Source: Archangium sp. (GTDB lineage: Bacteria; Myxococcota; Myxococcia; Myxococcales; Myxococcaceae). Taken from it: 14,652 nucleotides of DNA. The translations under genes and the position numbers were made by a program. Under the pieces are notes generated by a model. The model made no database searches and was not told where the DNA came from. It worked only from the letters and a program-made list of their open reading frames with translations. The stretch lies in the NCBI GenBank assembly GCA_031367385.1, contig JANLPS010000344.1:1-14652 (forward strand), written 5' to 3'. This document shows positions 3,828 to 12,438 of the stretch, piece after piece (the first letter of the stretch is position 1; the number at the start of each line of letters is the position of its first letter).

Positions 3828-3846
3828 GCCCTCGGCAACCGAGGGC
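3828..3846 (-). terminator. GC-rich hairpin directly after the stop of the 3846-4418 gene
   Basis: gccctcgg-caa-ccgagggc, perfect 8-bp stem; no U tract. Confidence 0.45.
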
Positions 3847-4418
3847 TAGGGTCTCGGCGTCTGCGCCTCCGCAATGGCCAGCCCAATCCAAATGCGCGCC
3901 GAGCCCAGGTCACCGTTCGCGAGCGACGCCTTCGCGGCCTGAATGTTCGCCAACGCGTTGCCAGTCAACGTGCTCTCCGCGTAATTCAAAGCCGCGCCGA
4001 CGTTGCCGTTGCCCGTCGCGAGCTGTTGCTGTGCCGCTCCGAGTGAGGCCACCGCTTGCTCTGATTGCGCGCGTCGTTCGGCGACTTGGCGCTCTTTCTC
4101 GGTTCTTCGGTTCTCGGTGTCGCTCAGCTGCGTCTGCAGGCTCGTGATCTGCCGGCTCAGCTTGTCGAGCTGCGCGCTCATCGCCTCGGCTTGGCTCGCT
4201 TGACGCTCGAGCAACGCGGCGCGGGTCTTCAGGTCGACGACGTCGCGACGCAGCTGGTCGACCTCTGCGATGACGGGGTGCGGTATCGGCGCGAGCGGCC
4301 TCGGCGGCTCAACCACGGTGACCCCTGCGTCGAGAGTAGGTTTCTTGACCACCGGTACGCCCGCGTCAATCGGTACCAGCCCGCCGGTGATGATCACCAT
4401 CGTGAAAAATTGAAACAT
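3846..4418 (-). CDS. Hypothetical exported or membrane-anchored coiled-coil protein, 190 aa; paralog of 6725-7468
   Basis: Hydrophobic N-terminus MFQFFTMVIITGG, DAGV and Pro-rich linker, heptad-like region (VDQLRRDVVDLKTRAALLERQ...LSDTENRR), C-terminal domain shared with 6725-7468. Confidence 0.85.
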   Translation of the reverse strand: MFQFFTMVIITGGLVPIDAGVPVVKKPTLDAGVTVVEPPRPLAPIPHPVIAEVDQLRRDVVDLKTRAALLERQASQAEAMSAQLDKLSRQITSLQTQLSDTENRRTEKERQVAERRAQSEQAVASLGAAQQQLATGNGNVGAALNYAESTLTGNALANIQAAKASLANGDLGSARIWIGLAIAEAQTPRP

Positions 4419-4555
4419 GGGCGCACTCTGGGCCGACTGCCGAGCAGGTGGCAACGTCCAACCGCTCTGTCCTCCAGGCGGCGGAGTGGAACGGGGCTGC
4501 GGTTCACGTACACTTCGCGCCCGTCGTTCGAACCATCTCGAGTGGAGCCCCCCCC

Positions 4556-6717
4556 ATGATTCGTTGTTGCCTCGGCCTGGCGCTCTCGCTCTTGGTGGCC
4601 TGTACCGGTACTTCTCCAGTCAAGATCGCGCTGGGCGGCGCGTGCACCAGCGACGCGAGCTGCGCCAATGATGGCAAGTGTACGAAGAACGTCTGTTACG
4701 CGCGCTCGTGCACCGCCACCACCTGCGGCGCCACCGAGGTCTGCGCCAGCAACGCCTGCGTCGATGAGCGTTGCCTCGGCGTCGCCTGCCCCGCCGGTGA
4801 CCTCTGCGTTCGCGGCACCTGCGCCTCGACCGCCTGTGCCACCAGCCAGTGCCCCACAGGCCAAGTCTGCGACAAAGAGACCTGTGTCGACGCCTTGTGT
4901 CTGGGCGTCGCCTGCCCCGGGAGTCAATCGTGTCGCGGCGGCGCCTGCGTCGATGCCTGCGCCGGGGTCACCTGCAACGGCAACCAGGTCTGCTCCAAGG
5001 GCAGCTGCGTCGACCCCTGCGCACAGGTCACCTGCACCGGCAACCAGGTTTGCTCGAAGGGCACCTGCACTGACCCCTGCGCTGCAATCACCTGCCCCGG
5101 CACGCAAATGTGCTCGAAGGGTACGTGCGTCGACGTGTGCGGAGCGATGAGCTGCACCACGGGCAAGACCTGCGTGAACAGCATGTGCATCGACGACGCG
5201 TGCGTGAACAAGACCTGCGGCTCGGCTCAGGTGTGCAGCCTCGGCGCCTGCATCGACCCAGAGTGCGTCGGCAAGAGCTGCACCGGCCCGCAGATTTGCC
5301 AGAAGGGCTCGTGCATCGACCCGCAGTGCGCCACGGTCACCTGCGCCGGCACCAAGGTCTGCAGCATGGGCACCTGCATCGACCCGCAATGCGTCGGCAA
5401 GACCTGCACCGGTACTGACGTGTGTGTGATGGGCACCTGCAGAGCGATCTGCGAGGTCAGCTGCGCTTCGCCGTGCCCGACGTGCACCGAGGGCCGTGGC
5501 TGCGGAGGCGATCTCGAATGCCAATCACGGCTGTGCGTCGGGGGCGTCTGCGCCTCCTGCGGCCCGAGCGCGCCCTGCCCCAACGGCGGTACGTGCCAGA
5601 ACGGCGTCTGCCGCTCCGGAGTGCTCGGCCCTGCGCCACCCTCACCGATTGCCAAAACCCCTTGGTCTGCGAAGACAACGTCTGCCGGTGGGCGGCTGGG
5701 CATGCGTGCACCACGACACCGCAATGCGTGAAGGGCCTGGCGTGCGAGAACCTCATTTGCCAGCGGCCGCACTGCATCGTGACTCCGGTCGAGACGCAGC
5801 CGGTGCCTGGAGGCACGGTGTGGTGGGCCTCTCAATCGATGTACATGGCCCCCAACGGCGAGATCTACGTGACCCACGGCCAGTGGAACATGTACCAGAA
5901 CTACGACATTCGCCGATTCCGCGTGGCGCCAGGCCAGACCGCGGTCGAGCAAGACCCTGCGCCTCCCGCTCCTCTTCTCACCTTCGGCAGCAACAGCCCC
6001 ATCGCCGAGGGCTCGAGCGATCAACCCGGCTCGGCGCAGGGCACGGCGACCGTCGGTGGCACCTTCTGGTGGATGCCCGGCGGCGGCGCGTGGGACGGCC
6101 GCATCTCGGTGACGATCAAGTTCACCGGGTTCAACAGTGATCTCGATTCGAACATGACCAACGAGGGGCGCTTCGCGAAGTGCGGCAGCAATTTTTACTT
6201 CTTCGGCGGCCAGTACACGACCAAGAAGTACGGCATTCGCTTCGACGCTGGAGGCGACCCCGCGTCGTTGGCCTCGGCGGTGACGCTGACCACTTCTGCG
6301 GCTCGGCGTGACACCTGGCCTTTCACCAGCCTCATCAACGTGGCCTGCACGCCGACCGCCGTCTGGGTCTTGGGTTCCAACGGCACCACGCCGGCGATTC
6401 AGAAGCTCGACCCGCTGACGCTCGTCGAGATGGGCGCGCCCATCTCAGTGGCGCTGCCCTACGGCAACCTCATCGGAGACTGGACCATCGCCATCGTCAG
6501 CGACGACCTCTTCTACCTCGTCGACACGGGCGGCGGCATCGTGTGGCAGGTGTACAAAGGGGCGGGCAAACAAATCGGCAAGGCGGTGGCGAACTCGCAT
6601 GCGTTCGGTACCCAAAACGGCCTGGCGGTGTTCACCAACACGAGCGTCATTCGCTACGAGAAGCAGATGATGAACGGCATGCCGCCCCCGCTCGACATCG
6701 ACTGCCAGTGGCAGTGA
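4556..6717 (+). CDS. Cys-rich repeat lipoprotein with a beta-rich C-terminal domain, ~720 aa once a frameshift at 5629-5631 is repaired
   Basis: GGAG at 4544-4547, ATG at 4556, signal MIRCCLGLALSLLVAC (lipobox LVAC). The Cys pattern stops at RSGVLG in one frame and resumes as PCATLTDCQNPLVCEDNVC in the frame of ORF 5422-6717. Adding one C to ggc cc tgc joins them. Confidence 0.85.
4697..5440 (+). repeat. 12 tandem coding repeats of 60-63 bp (C-x4-C-x5-C-x4-C)
   Basis: Units such as VDPCAQVTCTGNQVCSKGTC and IDPQCVGKTCTGTDVCVMGTC; eight of 21 aa plus four of 20 aa = 248 aa = 744 nt. Confidence 0.92.
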
Positions 6718-6724
6718 CGATGGC

Positions 6725-7468
6725 TCACTGAACCGGCGGAGTCGCCGACGCCGTCAGCACCGCTTGGTTGATCAGCTGCGCCGCGCCCGCCAGGTCTTTG
6801 TTCGCCAACGCCTGACGTGCTTGCTGCAGCGCCCCCTGCCCCACCGCGTTCATCGCAGGAGCAGCCGATTGCAACGCCCGGTCAACGCCTGAAATATCGC
6901 CCGTGGTCAGCTGCTGCTGAACGGCGAGCAGCGAATTGACGGCACCGTTGGTCTGCGCGCGCCGAGCCTCTTCGAGCGCCTCACGCCGGTCAGTCTCAGG
7001 CGTCGCCGGCTCAGCAGGCGCAGGCGGCGCCTCAACCGCGGCAACCGCAGTTGGTGCCGGAGCCACCGCTGGCGCAATCACCGGTACCACCCCCTGCTGC
7101 ATCGCCGCGACCGCCGCCCCGCCCACCTTCGGAGCGGGAACCGGCACCGGGCTCGGCACGCCTCCAGGCCCAGGCGTCGGCGCGGGCGCACCCGCCTCAT
7201 GAGGGGGCACCGGCAGCGGCGGGAGCGGAACGGGAACCGGCGCCACTGCGGCGACGGGTTCTTGAGGGGCGGCAGCAACCACCGCTGGGCGCGCAGGCGC
7301 CGCCGCGACCGGAGCCTCGGTCGGCATTCGCACCACCGGCGCCGTTACGGTCTCAGGCAGCACGATCTTCGGCGGAGTCGTATTCGAGGCCGCGATCTTC
7401 ACCCCAACGGTGAACGCGATGATCGCCGCAATCACTGACAACGTCACAGCAAGTTGAACGCGAGTCAT
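6725..7468 (-). CDS. Hypothetical membrane-anchored Pro/Ala-rich protein, 247 aa; paralog of 3846-4418
   Basis: GGAGG 7 nt upstream of ATG 7468; N-terminal hydrophobic helix LAVTLSVIAAIIAFTVGV; long Pro/Ala/Val linker; shared C-terminal helical domain. Confidence 0.85.
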   Translation of the reverse strand: MTRVQLAVTLSVIAAIIAFTVGVKIAASNTTPPKIVLPETVTAPVVRMPTEAPVAAAPARPAVVAAAPQEPVAAVAPVPVPLPPLPVPPHEAGAPAPTPGPGGVPSPVPVPAPKVGGAAVAAMQQGVVPVIAPAVAPAPTAVAAVEAPPAPAEPATPETDRREALEEARRAQTNGAVNSLLAVQQQLTTGDISGVDRALQSAAPAMNAVGQGALQQARQALANKDLAGAAQLINQAVLTASATPPVQ

Positions 7469-7481
7469 ACCCGCACCTCCG

Positions 7482-7497
7482 AGCATCGGGTGTGCCA
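7482..7497 (-). promoter_or_regulatory. Candidate sigma-54 (-24/-12) promoter
   Basis: TGGCACACCCGATGCT fits TGGCAC-N5-TTGCW with one mismatch and correct GG-N10-GC spacing, but the implied start site is only about 3 nt before the ATG. Confidence 0.25.
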
Positions 7498-7582
7498 CCC
7501 CCTACACCCTCCGTTTGAGAAATTCCAACCGGATACGGGGGGTGCCCCCGCCAAACTGCCACAGCGACGGGGCGTCTCGCGC

Positions 7583-8539
7583 CTAGCGAAAGACGATCAA
7601 CAGGGTGCCCGACCCGAGCGCCAGCAGCATGCAGGCGGCCAGCGACAACCGGTCATAGAACCGCATCTTGTCGAACTGCTCGGCGTCGCTCAGGTTCACC
7701 GCCAACACCGACTCGAGCAGCGCGACGAAGATCACCGCGTAGCTCAGGTTGTAGAGCTTATCGAGCAGCACCACGTACCCGACGTTGGGCAGCTCCGAGC
7801 TGCTGGTCAGCTGCAGCGCCACCGCCGAAATCAGCGTGGTGATGCCGAGCCCCATGCGCGCGTCGAAATATTTTCCGTGAATCAGAAACACCGCCATCGT
7901 GATCAGCAGCACGATCAACAACGGCAAAATCGACTTCACCATCGAGCTCCAGATCGGCCGCTTCACGTGAATGCTGGCGTTCAAGTGCGTGTAGGCCTCG
8001 GCATTCGCGGTCACTCGCGGGTCTCCGAAGTTGGTGTCGTATTTCATGTCGCTCACCGACAGGCTCACGTTCTCGAAGTCCCACCCGGCGAGCGAGAGAC
8101 CTGGGTGCACGCCACTGCGGCCGATGTCATCGACGCGGTACACCAGCTCGCTGTTCGTGGCCCGGTTGTCTTCGATCTCGAAGACCACGTCTTGCTCGTC
8201 GAAGGGGTAATTCTTCACCGAGAACGGGTGCGTGAACCGGCCCTGAATGTGAAATTGCTGATAGCTCGACCCGTCTTCGAGCACGTCGGGCTTCGAGTTG
8301 CCCTCGGCGTCGACGAAGATCGGTGTCTTCACCATCGACGACGCGTCGGCCGTGTTCATGAACTCGAAGCTCTTCGTCGGGTCGAGCTCTCCGTGCCAGC
8401 GAAACCAGATGTAGAAGTCGCCCATGTAGGTGTTCGACTTCAAATCAATCTCAGGAATGTGGTGCAGGTACGCGCCCACCGAGACCACTTCTGGGCCCGC
8501 CGGTTGAGCCGCGAGCATGATCAACACAAGTGAAACCAT
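7583..8539 (-). CDS. Prokaryotic pentameric ligand-gated ion channel (GLIC/ELIC-like Cys-loop receptor homolog), 318 aa
   Basis: Short signal peptide; beta1-beta2 VSVGAYL...IDLKSNTYMGDFYIWFRW; FEFMN; Pro-loop NYPFDEQ; GWDF; pre-M1 VKR; M1 with conserved Pro (ILPLLIV); M2 ARMGLGITTLISAVAL; M2-M3 loop LPNVGY..LLD; M3 and M4. No Cys-loop disulfide, as expected for bacterial members. Confidence 0.92.
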   Translation of the reverse strand: MVSLVLIMLAAQPAGPEVVSVGAYLHHIPEIDLKSNTYMGDFYIWFRWHGELDPTKSFEFMNTADASSMVKTPIFVDAEGNSKPDVLEDGSSYQQFHIQGRFTHPFSVKNYPFDEQDVVFEIEDNRATNSELVYRVDDIGRSGVHPGLSLAGWDFENVSLSVSDMKYDTNFGDPRVTANAEAYTHLNASIHVKRPIWSSMVKSILPLLIVLLITMAVFLIHGKYFDARMGLGITTLISAVALQLTSSSELPNVGYVVLLDKLYNLSYAVIFVALLESVLAVNLSDAEQFDKMRFYDRLSLAACMLLALGSGTLLIVFR

Positions 8540-9489
8540 TACGCCCCTCGTTTACGCGGTGGCGACCACCGGTGGCTCTCGAGCCGTGATTGCTGCAGAA
8601 AATGCTCTGAGACCGTGATGATCGCGGTGCGCATTTGGCTCGTCACTCGATCGACGTTCAACGCCAATGACAGGGTCTGGCTCGTGTCCCACCCGACCAC
8701 CTCGACTGGCACCAATTGCCCCGAGTGCATTCGCCCCATCGCCGCCGCAACCGGGCCGAACACCACCTGACTCGAGGCCACCGCGAGGTCGAGCGCCAGC
8801 TGAAGCGTCTGCGCCTCGTGCCCGTTCAGGCGTTGCCCGTATGGCAACGGGCACCCATCGTCGAGCGGCACGAAGTTGCCGTCGCTCGAGTTCACCGGGC
8901 TCACGAAACGCTCTCCTTTGATGAGCGAAACGTCGACCGGCTGCGGCCCCAGGCGCTTCGCCACCTCAGGCGTCGCGAACAGCCGGTTCTGCAGCTCTCC
9001 CAGCACCACGCTGTCCCACGTATCGAGCGAGATGGGCGGGCCGATGATGAACGCCGCGTCGAAGATGCCGGTGGGCGCCTGGGCCCGAATTTCGGCGGGC
9101 GCGAGCTGCAGCACGCGAAGCCGCTGAGCGGGCATTGCGTCGGCCAGCGGGCCACCCATGTTCTGCATCACGTACGACGGGCCAGCCACCGTCAGCACCG
9201 GGCCGGGCGCTCCAGCGTCGAGGCGGGCCTGCCGCAGCCGGGCGATCGCCCCTTCGAGCAGCGGCACCACTCGGGCCGCCTCATCGCTGGGCTCGACTCC
9301 GCGGGCCGAGCGCACCAACAGTGACACGTTGAGCTGATTTTCGAGCCGGGCGATCGCCTTCGAGACTTGCGAGGTCGTCACCCCGAGCTCACGCGCCGCC
9401 GCGCTCAAAGAGCCCTGCCGCCGAACCGCGAGAAAGGTCACGGCGTCTGAAAGTCGAAAGTCGGCGAGAGCATCTCGGCGTCGTCGCAT
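8539..9489 (-). CDS. LysR-family transcriptional regulator, 316 aa
   Basis: N-terminal HTH FLAVRRQGSLSAAARELGVTTSQVSKAIARLENQLNVSLLVRSARGVEPS; typical length; stop overlaps the channel start (TAATG). Confidence 0.93.
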   Translation of the reverse strand: MRRRRDALADFRLSDAVTFLAVRRQGSLSAAARELGVTTSQVSKAIARLENQLNVSLLVRSARGVEPSDEAARVVPLLEGAIARLRQARLDAGAPGPVLTVAGPSYVMQNMGGPLADAMPAQRLRVLQLAPAEIRAQAPTGIFDAAFIIGPPISLDTWDSVVLGELQNRLFATPEVAKRLGPQPVDVSLIKGERFVSPVNSSDGNFVPLDDGCPLPYGQRLNGHEAQTLQLALDLAVASSQVVFGPVAAAMGRMHSGQLVPVEVVGWDTSQTLSLALNVDRVTSQMRTAIITVSEHFLQQSRLESHRWSPPRKRGA

Positions 9490-9533: not shown

Positions 9534-10601
9534 TTAGCGGTTCATGCGAAAGAACTGAGGCGAGCCGAACCCGCCCATGCCCTCGTTGCTGACCAGAAAA
9601 CCGAACTCGAAGACGATGAACCCGTTCTCGACCAGCGCCGCCGGAGGGTTCGGAAAGGGCTGGGCTTTTTCGAACGCCTTCATCGCTTCTTGGTCGAGCT
9701 CGTCGACGCCTGAGCTTTGGCGAACGAACAAATCGGCGATCGACCCGTCGGGGCGCAGCGCGACGTGCATCACCGTCTTTCGCTCGACCGCGCCCAGCTG
9801 GCGGCCCTTGGCCCGCATTCGGCCGTTGGGGTCCCACTGGGCGCTGACGGCTTGCTTGACCCGGTTGAAGAAGGCCGCGAACTTCCACTCCCGGGTGTTC
9901 AAGAACGTGCCGTCGCCCTGCGCGACATCGTGCAGATCGTCATTCGGCGCCCCACCGCCCTCGGTGGCTTCGCTGCCCGGCACTGGAGCCTCGTTCGAGG
10001 CCTGCGAGCCGACCGCGCTGGTCTCGGGAGCCGTGTCATCGTGGCCCTGCGATGATTTTTGAAACAGCTCGCTGAGCTTGGGCCGCATGCCCAAGGGGCT
10101 CGTGAAGAGCTCTGCCGGAGAAGTACCGAGCAATGAGGGCGCCGCTCGCCCGTGCGCCATCGGCATCGCCATTGGGTTCGCCGTCGTCTTCGGAGTCGCC
10201 TTGCTGTACTTGTTCGTCTGCTCCTTCGCGACGGTCTGTTTCTGCACCCGGTTGTTGGTCTCGGCGAGGTACTTCGCGTCGGGCGAGAGCTGCTCATTGC
10301 CCGCCGCGACGTCGACGACTTGCCCTTTGGGGTGCAGCTCGGCCGGCTTCTCGAGCATGCTCTCAGCCGGCGTCGTCTTGCCGCGGTTGACTGCCCACCG
10401 CCGCGCGTCGATTTTTCGCAGGCTGACCGGGCGAGACACTTTTTTCGGTGGCTTCACCGTGGCCGTTAGCGTCGACAGCCCGACCAGCGCACAGATCAGC
10501 GCCGCGTTGCCGAGCAACGCCAGCAGCGGCACCGCGAGCCAGACCCGCAGCCGCTCACGAAGCGACGGCGGTACGCGCGGCTGGGTAATGCTCGAAGACA
10601 C
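9534..10601 (-). CDS. TonB-family protein (TM anchor, low-complexity linker, TonB/TolA-type C-terminal domain), 355 aa
   Basis: N-terminal hydrophobic helix; C-terminus FLNTREWKFAAFFNRVKQAVSAQWDP...VALRPDGSI...SSGVDELDQEAMKAFEKAQPFPNPP matches the TonB_C/TolA-III pattern. Confidence 0.88.
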   Translation of the reverse strand: MSSSITQPRVPPSLRERLRVWLAVPLLALLGNAALICALVGLSTLTATVKPPKKVSRPVSLRKIDARRWAVNRGKTTPAESMLEKPAELHPKGQVVDVAAGNEQLSPDAKYLAETNNRVQKQTVAKEQTNKYSKATPKTTANPMAMPMAHGRAAPSLLGTSPAELFTSPLGMRPKLSELFQKSSQGHDDTAPETSAVGSQASNEAPVPGSEATEGGGAPNDDLHDVAQGDGTFLNTREWKFAAFFNRVKQAVSAQWDPNGRMRAKGRQLGAVERKTVMHVALRPDGSIADLFVRQSSGVDELDQEAMKAFEKAQPFPNPPAALVENGFIVFEFGFLVSNEGMGGFGSPQFFRMNR

Positions 10602-10634: not shown

Positions 10635-10985
10635 TCAAAGCGAGACGCAAACCCTCTTGCCCAATCGCCCTTTCGTCAGCTGCACCCGCGCCTGCGCCTG
10701 CTGGTACGTGGCGCGAACGAGGTTCAACTTGGCCTGCGTCAGCGCCGACGGCGCAGCCAACAAATCGGTCGTTGTGCCCGAACCGGCCTGAACCAGGGCG
10801 TTGGTCACCCGATACGACTCATCGGCGCTGGCGATGGCCGTGCCTGCGACGTCAATCGCCGCGGTCGCCGCCTCGAGCTGGTCAAGACGCTCCGAGACCT
10901 CGACCCGCACCTGCCGCTTCGAGGCGTCGAGGCGTCAGCGCGGCTTCGCCAAGACGAAATTCGAGGGCAGCGCGGCGGTGCTCAT
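10635..10985 (-). pseudogene. C-terminal remnant of a TolC-family outer-membrane efflux protein
   Basis: VRVEVSERLDQLEAATAAIDVA...ADESYRVTNALVQAGSGTTTDLLAAPSALTQAKLNLVRATYQQAQARVQL is the terminal OEP helix pattern. Only ~115 codons remain, with apparent indels near 10932 and 10670. Confidence 0.75.
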
Positions 10986-11352
10986 GCCCAGCGCGTGGGC
11001 TTCGATCAACCGGCGACGAAACCGGGCCTGGGTGCCACTCACGTCGCACACCAACAGAATCACGTGCACCAGATGCTCTCGCAAAGGCAGCTCGCTCGAC
11101 GCTTCAATCGCGTTCTTCAGCAGCTCGTGAAATTTCGCGCGGCGGGTGTCGGTGAGCGATGCCACCAGGCTCACCCGGTCGGCGAAGTGGTTGTAGAGCG
11201 TGCCCACCGAGACCCCGGCGCGGGCGGCGATGGTCTCCATGCGCGCGTCGAGGCCCTCGTCGGCGAACACCTCTTCGGCCGCGTCGAGAATCGCCGAGGT
11301 GGCGACCTCCTTGAGGCGAGTGCGCAGATTTTGAACGCGCTCTTTCGCCCAC
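10935..11352 (-). pseudogene. TetR/AcrR-family regulator, C-terminally truncated
   Basis: HTH AILDAAEEVFADEGLDARMETIAARAGVSVGTLYNHFADR. About 138 codons, short for TetR (~190-200). The nearest plausible start, GTG at 11352, is one base out of frame (GTG-G-GCG-AAA-GAG). Confidence 0.75.
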
Positions 11353-11433
11353 AGTGTGTTGAATCGCGAAGACCGCGAACCACCAGCCCTTCGGAGGTAG
11401 CGATATGTGAGCCAGGCGGCTACGAGAGCCGCC

Positions 11434-12438
11434 ATGACCTGGGTGACCGATTCGGTGGAGTTCGCATTGAAGGGCGTCGTGGTGACCGTGGTCTTCGGCG
11501 TCATCGCGATGATCATCGCCTCGCTGGTTCGACGGCGCCGTGACAGCGGCCCCCGCCTCGAGGTGCGCAAGCTCAATGAGCGCTTCGAGAGCCTCGGCCG
11601 CGCCCTTCGCACCCACGTGATGGGCAAGAAGGCCTACAAGGCCTGGCTCAAAGCCCAGAAAGACCCCGAGGCGAGCGACTCGAAGCCCAAGGTCTTCGTG
11701 CTCGACTTCGAGGGCGACCTGATGGCCACTGCCACCGCGTCGTTGCGCGAAGAGGTCACCGCCATCGCCTCTCTGGCCCAGGCCAATGACGAGGTCGTGG
11801 TACGCCTCGAGAGCCCCGGGGGCGCGGTACCCCACTACGGCCTTGCCGCCGCCCAGCTGGCCCGGCTCAAGGCCCACGACATCAAGCTCACCGTCTGCAT
11901 CGACCGGGTGGCTGCCAGCGGGGGCTACATGATGGCCTGCGTCGCCGACTCCATCATCGCCGCGCCCTTCGCCATCGTCGGCTCGATTGGCGTGGTCGCC
12001 CAGGTGCCGAACCTCCACCGCCTGCTCAAGAAACACGACGTCGACTACGAAGAGATGACCGCCGGCGAGTTCAAGCGAACGGTCAGCTTCTTCGGCGAGA
12101 TCAGCTCGAAGGGCCGGGCCAAGTTTCAAGATCAGCTCGAAGAGACCCACAGCCTGTTCAAGGAGTTCGTCAAAGCCCACCGCCCTTCGCTCGACGTCGA
12201 GCAGGTGGCCACCGGCGAGTACTGGCTCGGTCGCCGCACCATTGAGCTGGGCCTGGTCGATCGACTGGCGACCAGCGACGAGTATCTGCTCGAGCGCGCC
12301 AAGACCGCTTCGCTCTACCGGGTCGCCTACCACCCCAAGGTCGAGTGGCGCTCGAGGCTGAGCCGGTTCGCGACCGAAGCCGCCGAGGCCACCGTGATGA
12401 AATTTCTCAGCCGGGCTATGAGCTTGAGGCTGCGGTAA
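11434..12438 (+). CDS. sohB: Protease SohB (peptidase S49)
   Basis: N-terminal TM helix; VFVLDFEGD, LREEVTAI, LESPGG.V..YGLAAAQL, DRVAASGGYMMAC, APFAIVGSIGVVAQ, TAGEFKRT, VATGEYW. Alternative GTG start at 11407. Confidence 0.93.
   Translation: MTWVTDSVEFALKGVVVTVVFGVIAMIIASLVRRRRDSGPRLEVRKLNERFESLGRALRTHVMGKKAYKAWLKAQKDPEASDSKPKVFVLDFEGDLMATATASLREEVTAIASLAQANDEVVVRLESPGGAVPHYGLAAAQLARLKAHDIKLTVCIDRVAASGGYMMACVADSIIAAPFAIVGSIGVVAQVPNLHRLLKKHDVDYEEMTAGEFKRTVSFFGEISSKGRAKFQDQLEETHSLFKEFVKAHRPSLDVEQVATGEYWLGRRTIELGLVDRLATSDEYLLERAKTASLYRVAYHPKVEWRSRLSRFATEAAEATVMKFLSRAMSLRLR

Follow-up and report, generated by a model that had tools for sequence, protein, structure and literature searches.

The window analyzed here, a stretch of 14,652 nt from Archangium sp. 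(contig JANLPS010000344.1), raises the question of which ions are passed by a bacterial pLGIC whose M2 helix resembles that of the glycine receptor (GlyR). A sequence-only reading had presented the channel as a candidate for unusual ion selectivity with a possible affinity to animal anion channels, and held that its selectivity cannot be called from sequence.

The gene (positions 7583..8539, minus strand) encodes a protein of 318 aa without any added domain, described by its ORF, Pfam, PDB matches and predicted model as a pLGIC of the Cys-less (Pro-loop) type. The Pfam match to PF02932 (E 5e-6, 27.4 bits) lies just below the gathering cut-off of 28.1, and a PDB search with the whole channel yields 217 sequences at E<=0.001, with ELIC and GLIC chimeras first, followed by GlyR (57-60 bits), ELIC (56) and GLIC (55-57). 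The predicted monomer model (pLDDT 95.8) comprises a beta-sandwich and four membrane helices. Foldseek places GLIC chains at the top (TM about 0.8, 20% identity), and VIA-align Z scores are 25.1 for GluCl, 24.7 for GLIC, 24.2 for RDL and 24.1 for alpha7 nAChR, which are all within 1 Z and count as tied. The Pfam and PDB matches, the pLDDT and the pLGIC fold of the model argue for homology rather than chance, confirming the earlier assignment to bacterial pLGICs. All superfamily marks given in the accessible part of PMC4795631 (Table 1) are present (the F/Y-P-x-D loop as Y111-P112-F113-D114, the beta9 Trp as W153, the Arg before M1 as R194, the Pro of M1 as P206 and that of the M2-M3 loop as P251), as is, in the monomer model, the superfamily architecture of an extracellular beta-sandwich domain followed by four membrane helices. 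Judged by its sequence and predicted structure, the gene is an ordinary bacterial pLGIC, a Cys-less Pro-loop channel.

All parts of the channel are given here on the minus strand. The hydrophobic N-terminus ahead of the first strand is a probable short signal peptide that would be cleaved (residues 1-12, 8504..8539). The extracellular beta-sandwich domain (residues 13-194, 7958..8503), with an ELIC-like site according to alignment and conservation, contains the Pro-loop Y-P-F-D (residues 111-114, 8198..8209) without flanking cysteines; the sole cysteine of the channel is C303 in M4, and the Cys-loop pair of animal receptors is absent. The M1 helix (residues 196-219, 7883..7954, from DSSP on the model) carries P206, which is kept in all of the best 120 of 192 homologs. 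The model further contains the M2 pore helix (residues 225-247, 7799..7867), M3 (residues 258-285, 7685..7768) and M4 (residues 289-316, 7592..7675), with a link of 3 residues between M3 and M4 and no intracellular domain. The GlyR-like M2 peptide quoted in the sequence-only reading is indeed there (residues 225-260, 7760-7867), and its numbering was correct: D226 is -2', A227 is -1' and R228 is 0' (selectivity triplet, 7856..7864). The predicted pore-facing residues of M2, with positions taken from the accessible part of PMC3590989, are D-2', G2', T6', I9', A13' and L16'.

Positions -2' to 0' were compared in several homolog sets. In the close set (the best 120 of the 192 homologs found, 41-100% identity), position -2' is Glu in 85 sequences, Asp in 34 and Ala in one, the last having Glu at -1'; thus, acid is found at -2' in 119/120 and at -2' or -1' in 120/120. 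At position -1', 79 of them have Gly and 37 have Ala, R0' is invariant (120/120), and -5' is Lys or Arg in 82/120. The broad set was composed of the 150 best 50%-identity representatives of the broad profile, less two five-repeat proteins; acid occupies -2' in 128 of these 148 representatives and either position in 129, while A-1'/R0' is seen in 38, always with an acid at -2' (38/38). The own-phylum set of 112 loci (114 hits, one duplicate and one fragment being dropped) has acid at -2' in 92 and at either position in 97, and A-1'/R0' is again preceded by acid in 38/38. Pro-2' occurs in 0/120, 0/148 and 0/112 sequences of the close, broad and own-phylum sets, respectively, which overlap, share kinship, lean to the profile's own lineage and are not independent. 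In 44 distinct loci of the phylum to which a Caulobacter genome belongs, acid is found at -2' in only 12 and at either position in 15, with Pro-2' in two, so that acid at -2' is a trait of the clade of the window channel and not of all bacteria.

Hence the anion-type triplet P-2'/A-1'/R0' without an acid is not found in the window channel, which has D-2', and the acidic ring of GLIC/ELIC-type cation channels (at -2' or -1') is represented by D226. The sequence-only reading had pointed to the identity at A-1', omitting that GLIC, which is cation-selective, reads E-2' A-1' N0' in the profile alignment; Ala-1' as an anion mark is therefore rejected, being uninformative, and the informative position is -2'. 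In GLIC the charged ring is at -2', where the Glu-2' ring binds cations (PMC3590989, accessible part). According to the accessible part of PMC4795631, basic residues at 0' are widespread, being present in 79% of pLGICs and in both of the animal motifs, and the selectivity position is cautioned to be, in general, not sufficient for prokaryotes.

The closest experiment is the glutamate scan of GABA rho1, whose loop has the same length as that of the window channel (nine residues, W-9' to R0'). In the accessible part of PMC2174155, P-2'E gives a PNa/PCl of 3.4 +/- 1.2, the maximum of the scan, compared with 0.05 for P-2'A, 0.09 for P-2'K and 0 for the wild type; several Glu mutants at -1', 1', 3' and 5' are non-selective, and neutralisation of the native basic loop residues changes selectivity little. 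Conservation of the acid at -2', taken together with the effect of P-2'E in rho1, allows a preference for cations to be called with moderate confidence, contrary to the earlier view that sequence does not permit such a call. The window channel is predicted by this analogy to be a natural counterpart of rho1 P-2'E, with Asp for Glu and a possibly modest cation preference. The rho1 P290E (-2') mutant, cation-preferring in the same source, shares the acid-Ala-Arg triplet and the anion-length loop; it differs in that it is a human receptor altered by engineering, has Glu in place of Asp and carries Pro at 2'.

We consider it probable, from sequence and analogy, that the gene product is a bacterial Pro-loop channel of five identical subunits, with a preference for monovalent cations and gated by an amine. 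At the cytoplasmic mouth, five Asp226 side chains would make a ring of negative charge, in the place of Pro-2' in GlyR and Glu-2' in GLIC. Pore-facing residues 9', 13' and 16' are I, A, L, as compared to I, A, I in GLIC and L, T, S in GlyR, and would make up a GLIC-like hydrophobic gate. A small amine would bind between subunits, at glutamates E59 and E123 in an ELIC-like aromatic box, and would open the gate via the Pro-loop, R194 and the M2-M3 loop. The GlyR-like run G2'-T7' would then come from common ancestry together with recent drift at positions that do not determine selectivity. Several points speak against the cation preference: Asp, with a shorter side chain than that of Glu, could serve as a helix cap or form a pair with R0', a residue absent from GLIC; the ratio for the rho1 mutant is no more than about 3:1; the loop exceeds that of GLIC by two residues; the 60 best membrane-domain matches are of the GABA-A/GlyR type; and GluCl (Z 25.1) ties with GLIC (24.7) in comparisons with the model. 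The selectivity of the window channel may thus be modest, and some chloride leak is also compatible with these data.

A poorly selective channel, in which Arg0' and Lys-5' cancel part of the charge of the Asp-2' ring and let both cations and chloride pass, seems to us rather unlikely. It would accord with the non-selective rho1 mutants and the mere 3.4:1 of P-2'E, with the invariance of R0' and the frequency of Lys or Arg at -5' (82 of the best 120 homologs), and with Gly2', which would leave the lower pore wide. The small effect of native basic residues on rho1 selectivity (PMC2174155, accessible part) is at odds with such cancellation, and so is the conservation of the acid in the FastTree tree. 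This midpoint-rooted tree was built from 222 of 454 rows after removal of near-duplicates and fragments, with bacterial and dinoflagellate rows only, and places the window channel in a clade of 75 (support 0.996), where acid is at -2' in 72 members, at -1' in two and at neither position in one; its retention in 74/75 suggests a strong function.

Taking the resemblance to animal receptors at face value, the channel would be anion-selective and branch near the root of GlyR, GABA-A and GluCl, with Asp-2' acting as a helix cap facing away from the pore; we regard this as very improbable. The alignment with GlyR is gapless from M1 to M3, and 15 of 35 residues from -2' to 32' are identical to those of the PDB chains, in agreement with the GlyR stretch given in the sequence-only reading (A-1', R0', G2'-T7', S18', L22', P23', V25', Y27', V28', D32'). 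The membrane domain alone finds only GABA-A/GlyR-type channels among its 60 best PDB matches (GABA-A at most 38 bits, GlyR 31-34), GluCl heads the fold list by a margin of less than 1 Z, and the M1-M2 loop of nine residues (-8' to 0') equals that of animal anion channels, being two longer than in GLIC. The loop length is, however, 9 in 146/148 of the best representatives, and so the anion-type length is not diagnostic. Two controls reject the best match to GlyR as evidence of kinship: for the paralog L003, with D-V-R, the first match is also GABA-A (about 31 bits), and the membrane domain of the unrelated bacterial channel L095 reaches 61-63 bits against GlyR alpha1 and 64-65 against ELIC, compared with 31-34 to GlyR here, while the window channel over the same 97-residue span has no PDB match at E<=1e-7. 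With the broad profile of these bacterial channels, GLIC chains fill almost all of the best 60 PDB matches.

The GLGITT motif (G2'-T7') is similarly rejected as a sign of kinship, as it is twig-specific: it occurs in 8/120 of the best homologs and 0/148 of the best representatives, and in the tree it is confined to a terminal twig (6/7 tips). The absence of Pro-2' from all three sets also argues against anion selectivity. Moreover, a relative of anion channels need not share their selectivity: LGC-50 is cationic beside the anionic MOD-1 (PMC8536830, accessible part); loop swaps convert LGC-55 (PMC4562599, accessible part). Only slightly less doubtful, and still quite unlikely, is that the channel conducts chloride no less readily than sodium in spite of Asp-2' and that its wide bacterial clade, with an anion-length loop and acid-A-R, retains the ancestral state of the animal P-A-R chloride channels, which would have arisen from it through one substitution at -2' without proline insertion.

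As to the proposal of unusual selectivity, the anion-type loop length and the GABA-A/GlyR best matches of the membrane domain remain in its favor, but a special anion candidate is not supported, with D/E-2' in 119/120. The reading had set against itself strict cation selectivity and a motif common among bacterial pLGICs with no special affinity to animal anion channels; the latter is what we find in the sets examined (acid-A-R in 38/148, the loop length in 146/148, L095 far closer to GlyR). The cation preference may be less than strict, giving an intermediate phenotype.

The preferred reading, a cation-preferring and amine-gated channel, also draws on the ligand site. The ELIC pocket consists of E77, E131, F133, Y175, F188, F19 and Y38, with the two glutamates adjoining the ammonium (PMC3316889, accessible part). 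In the ELIC part of the 6cdu alignment, Y24, Y43, E123, Y167 and Y183 correspond to F19, Y38, E131, Y175 and F188, and E59, in the loop A motif of the profile alignment to GLIC, is probably the equivalent of E77. These positions are conserved among the best 120 of the 192 homologs (E123 in 120, E59 in 118, Y24 in 117, an aromatic residue at 43 and at 167 in 120 each, Y/F183 in 105). Six of the seven ELIC orthosteric equivalents are thus present and conserved, while the counterpart of loop-B F133 is the variable N125. The gating ligand is likely, from these residues, a small amine or amino acid, its identity being a guess due to this replacement.

Besides the rho1 mutant, the known systems closest to the channel are GLIC, a proton-gated cation channel of Gloeobacter, the animal anion channels, and ELIC, an amine-gated cation channel of Dickeya/Erwinia. 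Like GLIC, it has an acid at -2' with Ala-1', I9', A13', a Cys-less Pro-loop and no intracellular domain, whereas GLIC has a loop two residues shorter, Asn0', T2' and S6', and its orthosteric site has a single principal-side aromatic residue (PMC3316889, accessible part). It shares with GlyR alpha1, GABA-A and GluCl the loop length, A-1', R0', L22'-P23', Y27' and D32' (and G2'-T7' with GlyR), but these receptors have Pro-2' instead of Asp, T13'/S16' instead of the hydrophobic A13'/L16', and Cys-loop cysteines and an intracellular domain that are absent here, with about 20% overall identity. ELIC has counterparts of the site residues (E77, E131, F19, Y38, Y175, F188) and a whole-chain score of 56 bits, and differs in F133, which is Asn in the window channel. 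The acid of ELIC is located at -1', compared with Asp at -2' here.

A LysR-type regulator assigned by Pfam lies upstream of the channel (8539..9489, minus strand), its stop codon overlapping the channel start by one base, and the two are probably co-transcribed in this genome. As a conserved partner it is rejected, no LysR match being found at the 11 loci examined, which included the closest orthologs (most flanks 1.5 kb). There is no sign of recent lateral transfer of the channel: its GC3 (0.87) is similar to that of the neighbours (0.81-0.88), and orthologs of 62-74% are present in related genomes. Named homologs belong to Myxococcaceae and Polyangiales; the window genome carries two channel paralogs (29-31% identity). 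The phylum survey gives a match in 71/401 genomes, often in two to five copies, a tally that counts the unpublished genome G181, from which no sequence entered the analysis. The broad profile reaches 2,979 clusters at 50% identity with E<=1e-30, eukaryotic ones included, and bacterial and archaeal pLGIC clusters are found in the Atlas at 0.95-0.96. A close ortholog (59%) in a Myxococcaceae MAG is spread over two frames (L113:3723-4588), owing to a frameshift or an assembly error.

Other genes of the window are a carboxylesterase (99-2036), a TonB-family protein (9534-10601), a TetR regulator (10935-11627) and a SohB-like S49 peptidase (11407-12438), all ordinary neighbours assigned by Pfam. 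A cysteine-rich repeat protein with a weak DUF7107 match and at least five paralogs in the genome is encoded at 4448-5731 (plus strand); the ORF at 5422-6717 (plus strand) continues the cysteine repeats and overlaps it by about 300 bases, so that 4448-6717 is possibly one frameshifted gene. The proteins encoded at 3846-4454 and 6725-7498 (both minus strand) have no Pfam match, each with a hydrophobic N-terminal stretch and with similar, Gln/Ala-rich C-terminal helix regions, and are possible distant paralogs.

Several other channels were met alongside. A group from the phylum of a Caulobacter genome (L136:235-2364 and L161:1-1245, both plus strand, with relatives L137-L146) carries a periplasmic binding domain at the N-terminus (PF13458 in L136 and L141) and reads P-S-R or A-S-R at -2' to 0', so that neither -2' nor -1' is acidic; the M2-M3 loop is shortened and has lost L-P, and the group's best PDB matches are of the GlyR/GABA-A type. 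By their sequences these are better anion candidates than the window channel, though with Glu at -5' or -6'. The genome's own paralog P0121 (L002:1423-2343, minus strand; G000 C133) falls in a clade whose triplets are S-P-R or G-P-R, with neither -2' nor -1' acidic and a net loop charge of +2, and L098 and L104 read S-A-K; their triplets make all three candidates for non-cation selectivity. The paralog L003 (L003:1378-3807, plus strand; G000 C228) is an 810-aa protein in which a pLGIC is followed by a family 5 solute-binding domain (PF00496) at the C-terminus, so that the sensor domain sits after M4 and not ahead of the channel; many genomes of the family contain open frames of about 800 aa (also P0153 and P0187). 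In L007 and L122 two divergent pLGIC genes are adjacent (D-A-R with S-P-R, and G-P-R with A-P-R, respectively), and the different loop motifs suggest heteropentamers.

The most striking incidental find, unrelated to the window, is a set of proteins of 1641-3136 aa (P0243, P0139, P0272-P0282) with five tandem pLGIC subunits per chain. Among the 13 clusters found, 12 have five Pro-loop motifs and the remaining one is N-terminally partial; the named proteins come from dinoflagellates (Prorocentrum, Polarella, Symbiodinium), and in the FastTree tree each of repeats 1-4 of P0139 groups with the repeat at the same position in P0243. From its sequence, such a protein looks like a natural single-chain pseudo-pentamer, and since P0243 has no hydrophobic segment before the first repeat, its topology may be unusual. 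No five-subunit single-chain pLGIC was found in the literature at the level of listings or in the accessible part of PMC4795631.

No prokaryotic pLGIC with anion selectivity came up in the literature at the level of titles and abstract openings; a genuine one would therefore be of importance for the origin of inhibitory receptors. The window channel is not the best candidate for this role, those met alongside being better: bacterial pLGICs number in the thousands, and this one probably behaves like known cation channels. Still, only D226 separates its triplet from P-A-R and its loop has the required length, which makes it a test bed for whether -2' alone sets charge selectivity in a prokaryotic scaffold.
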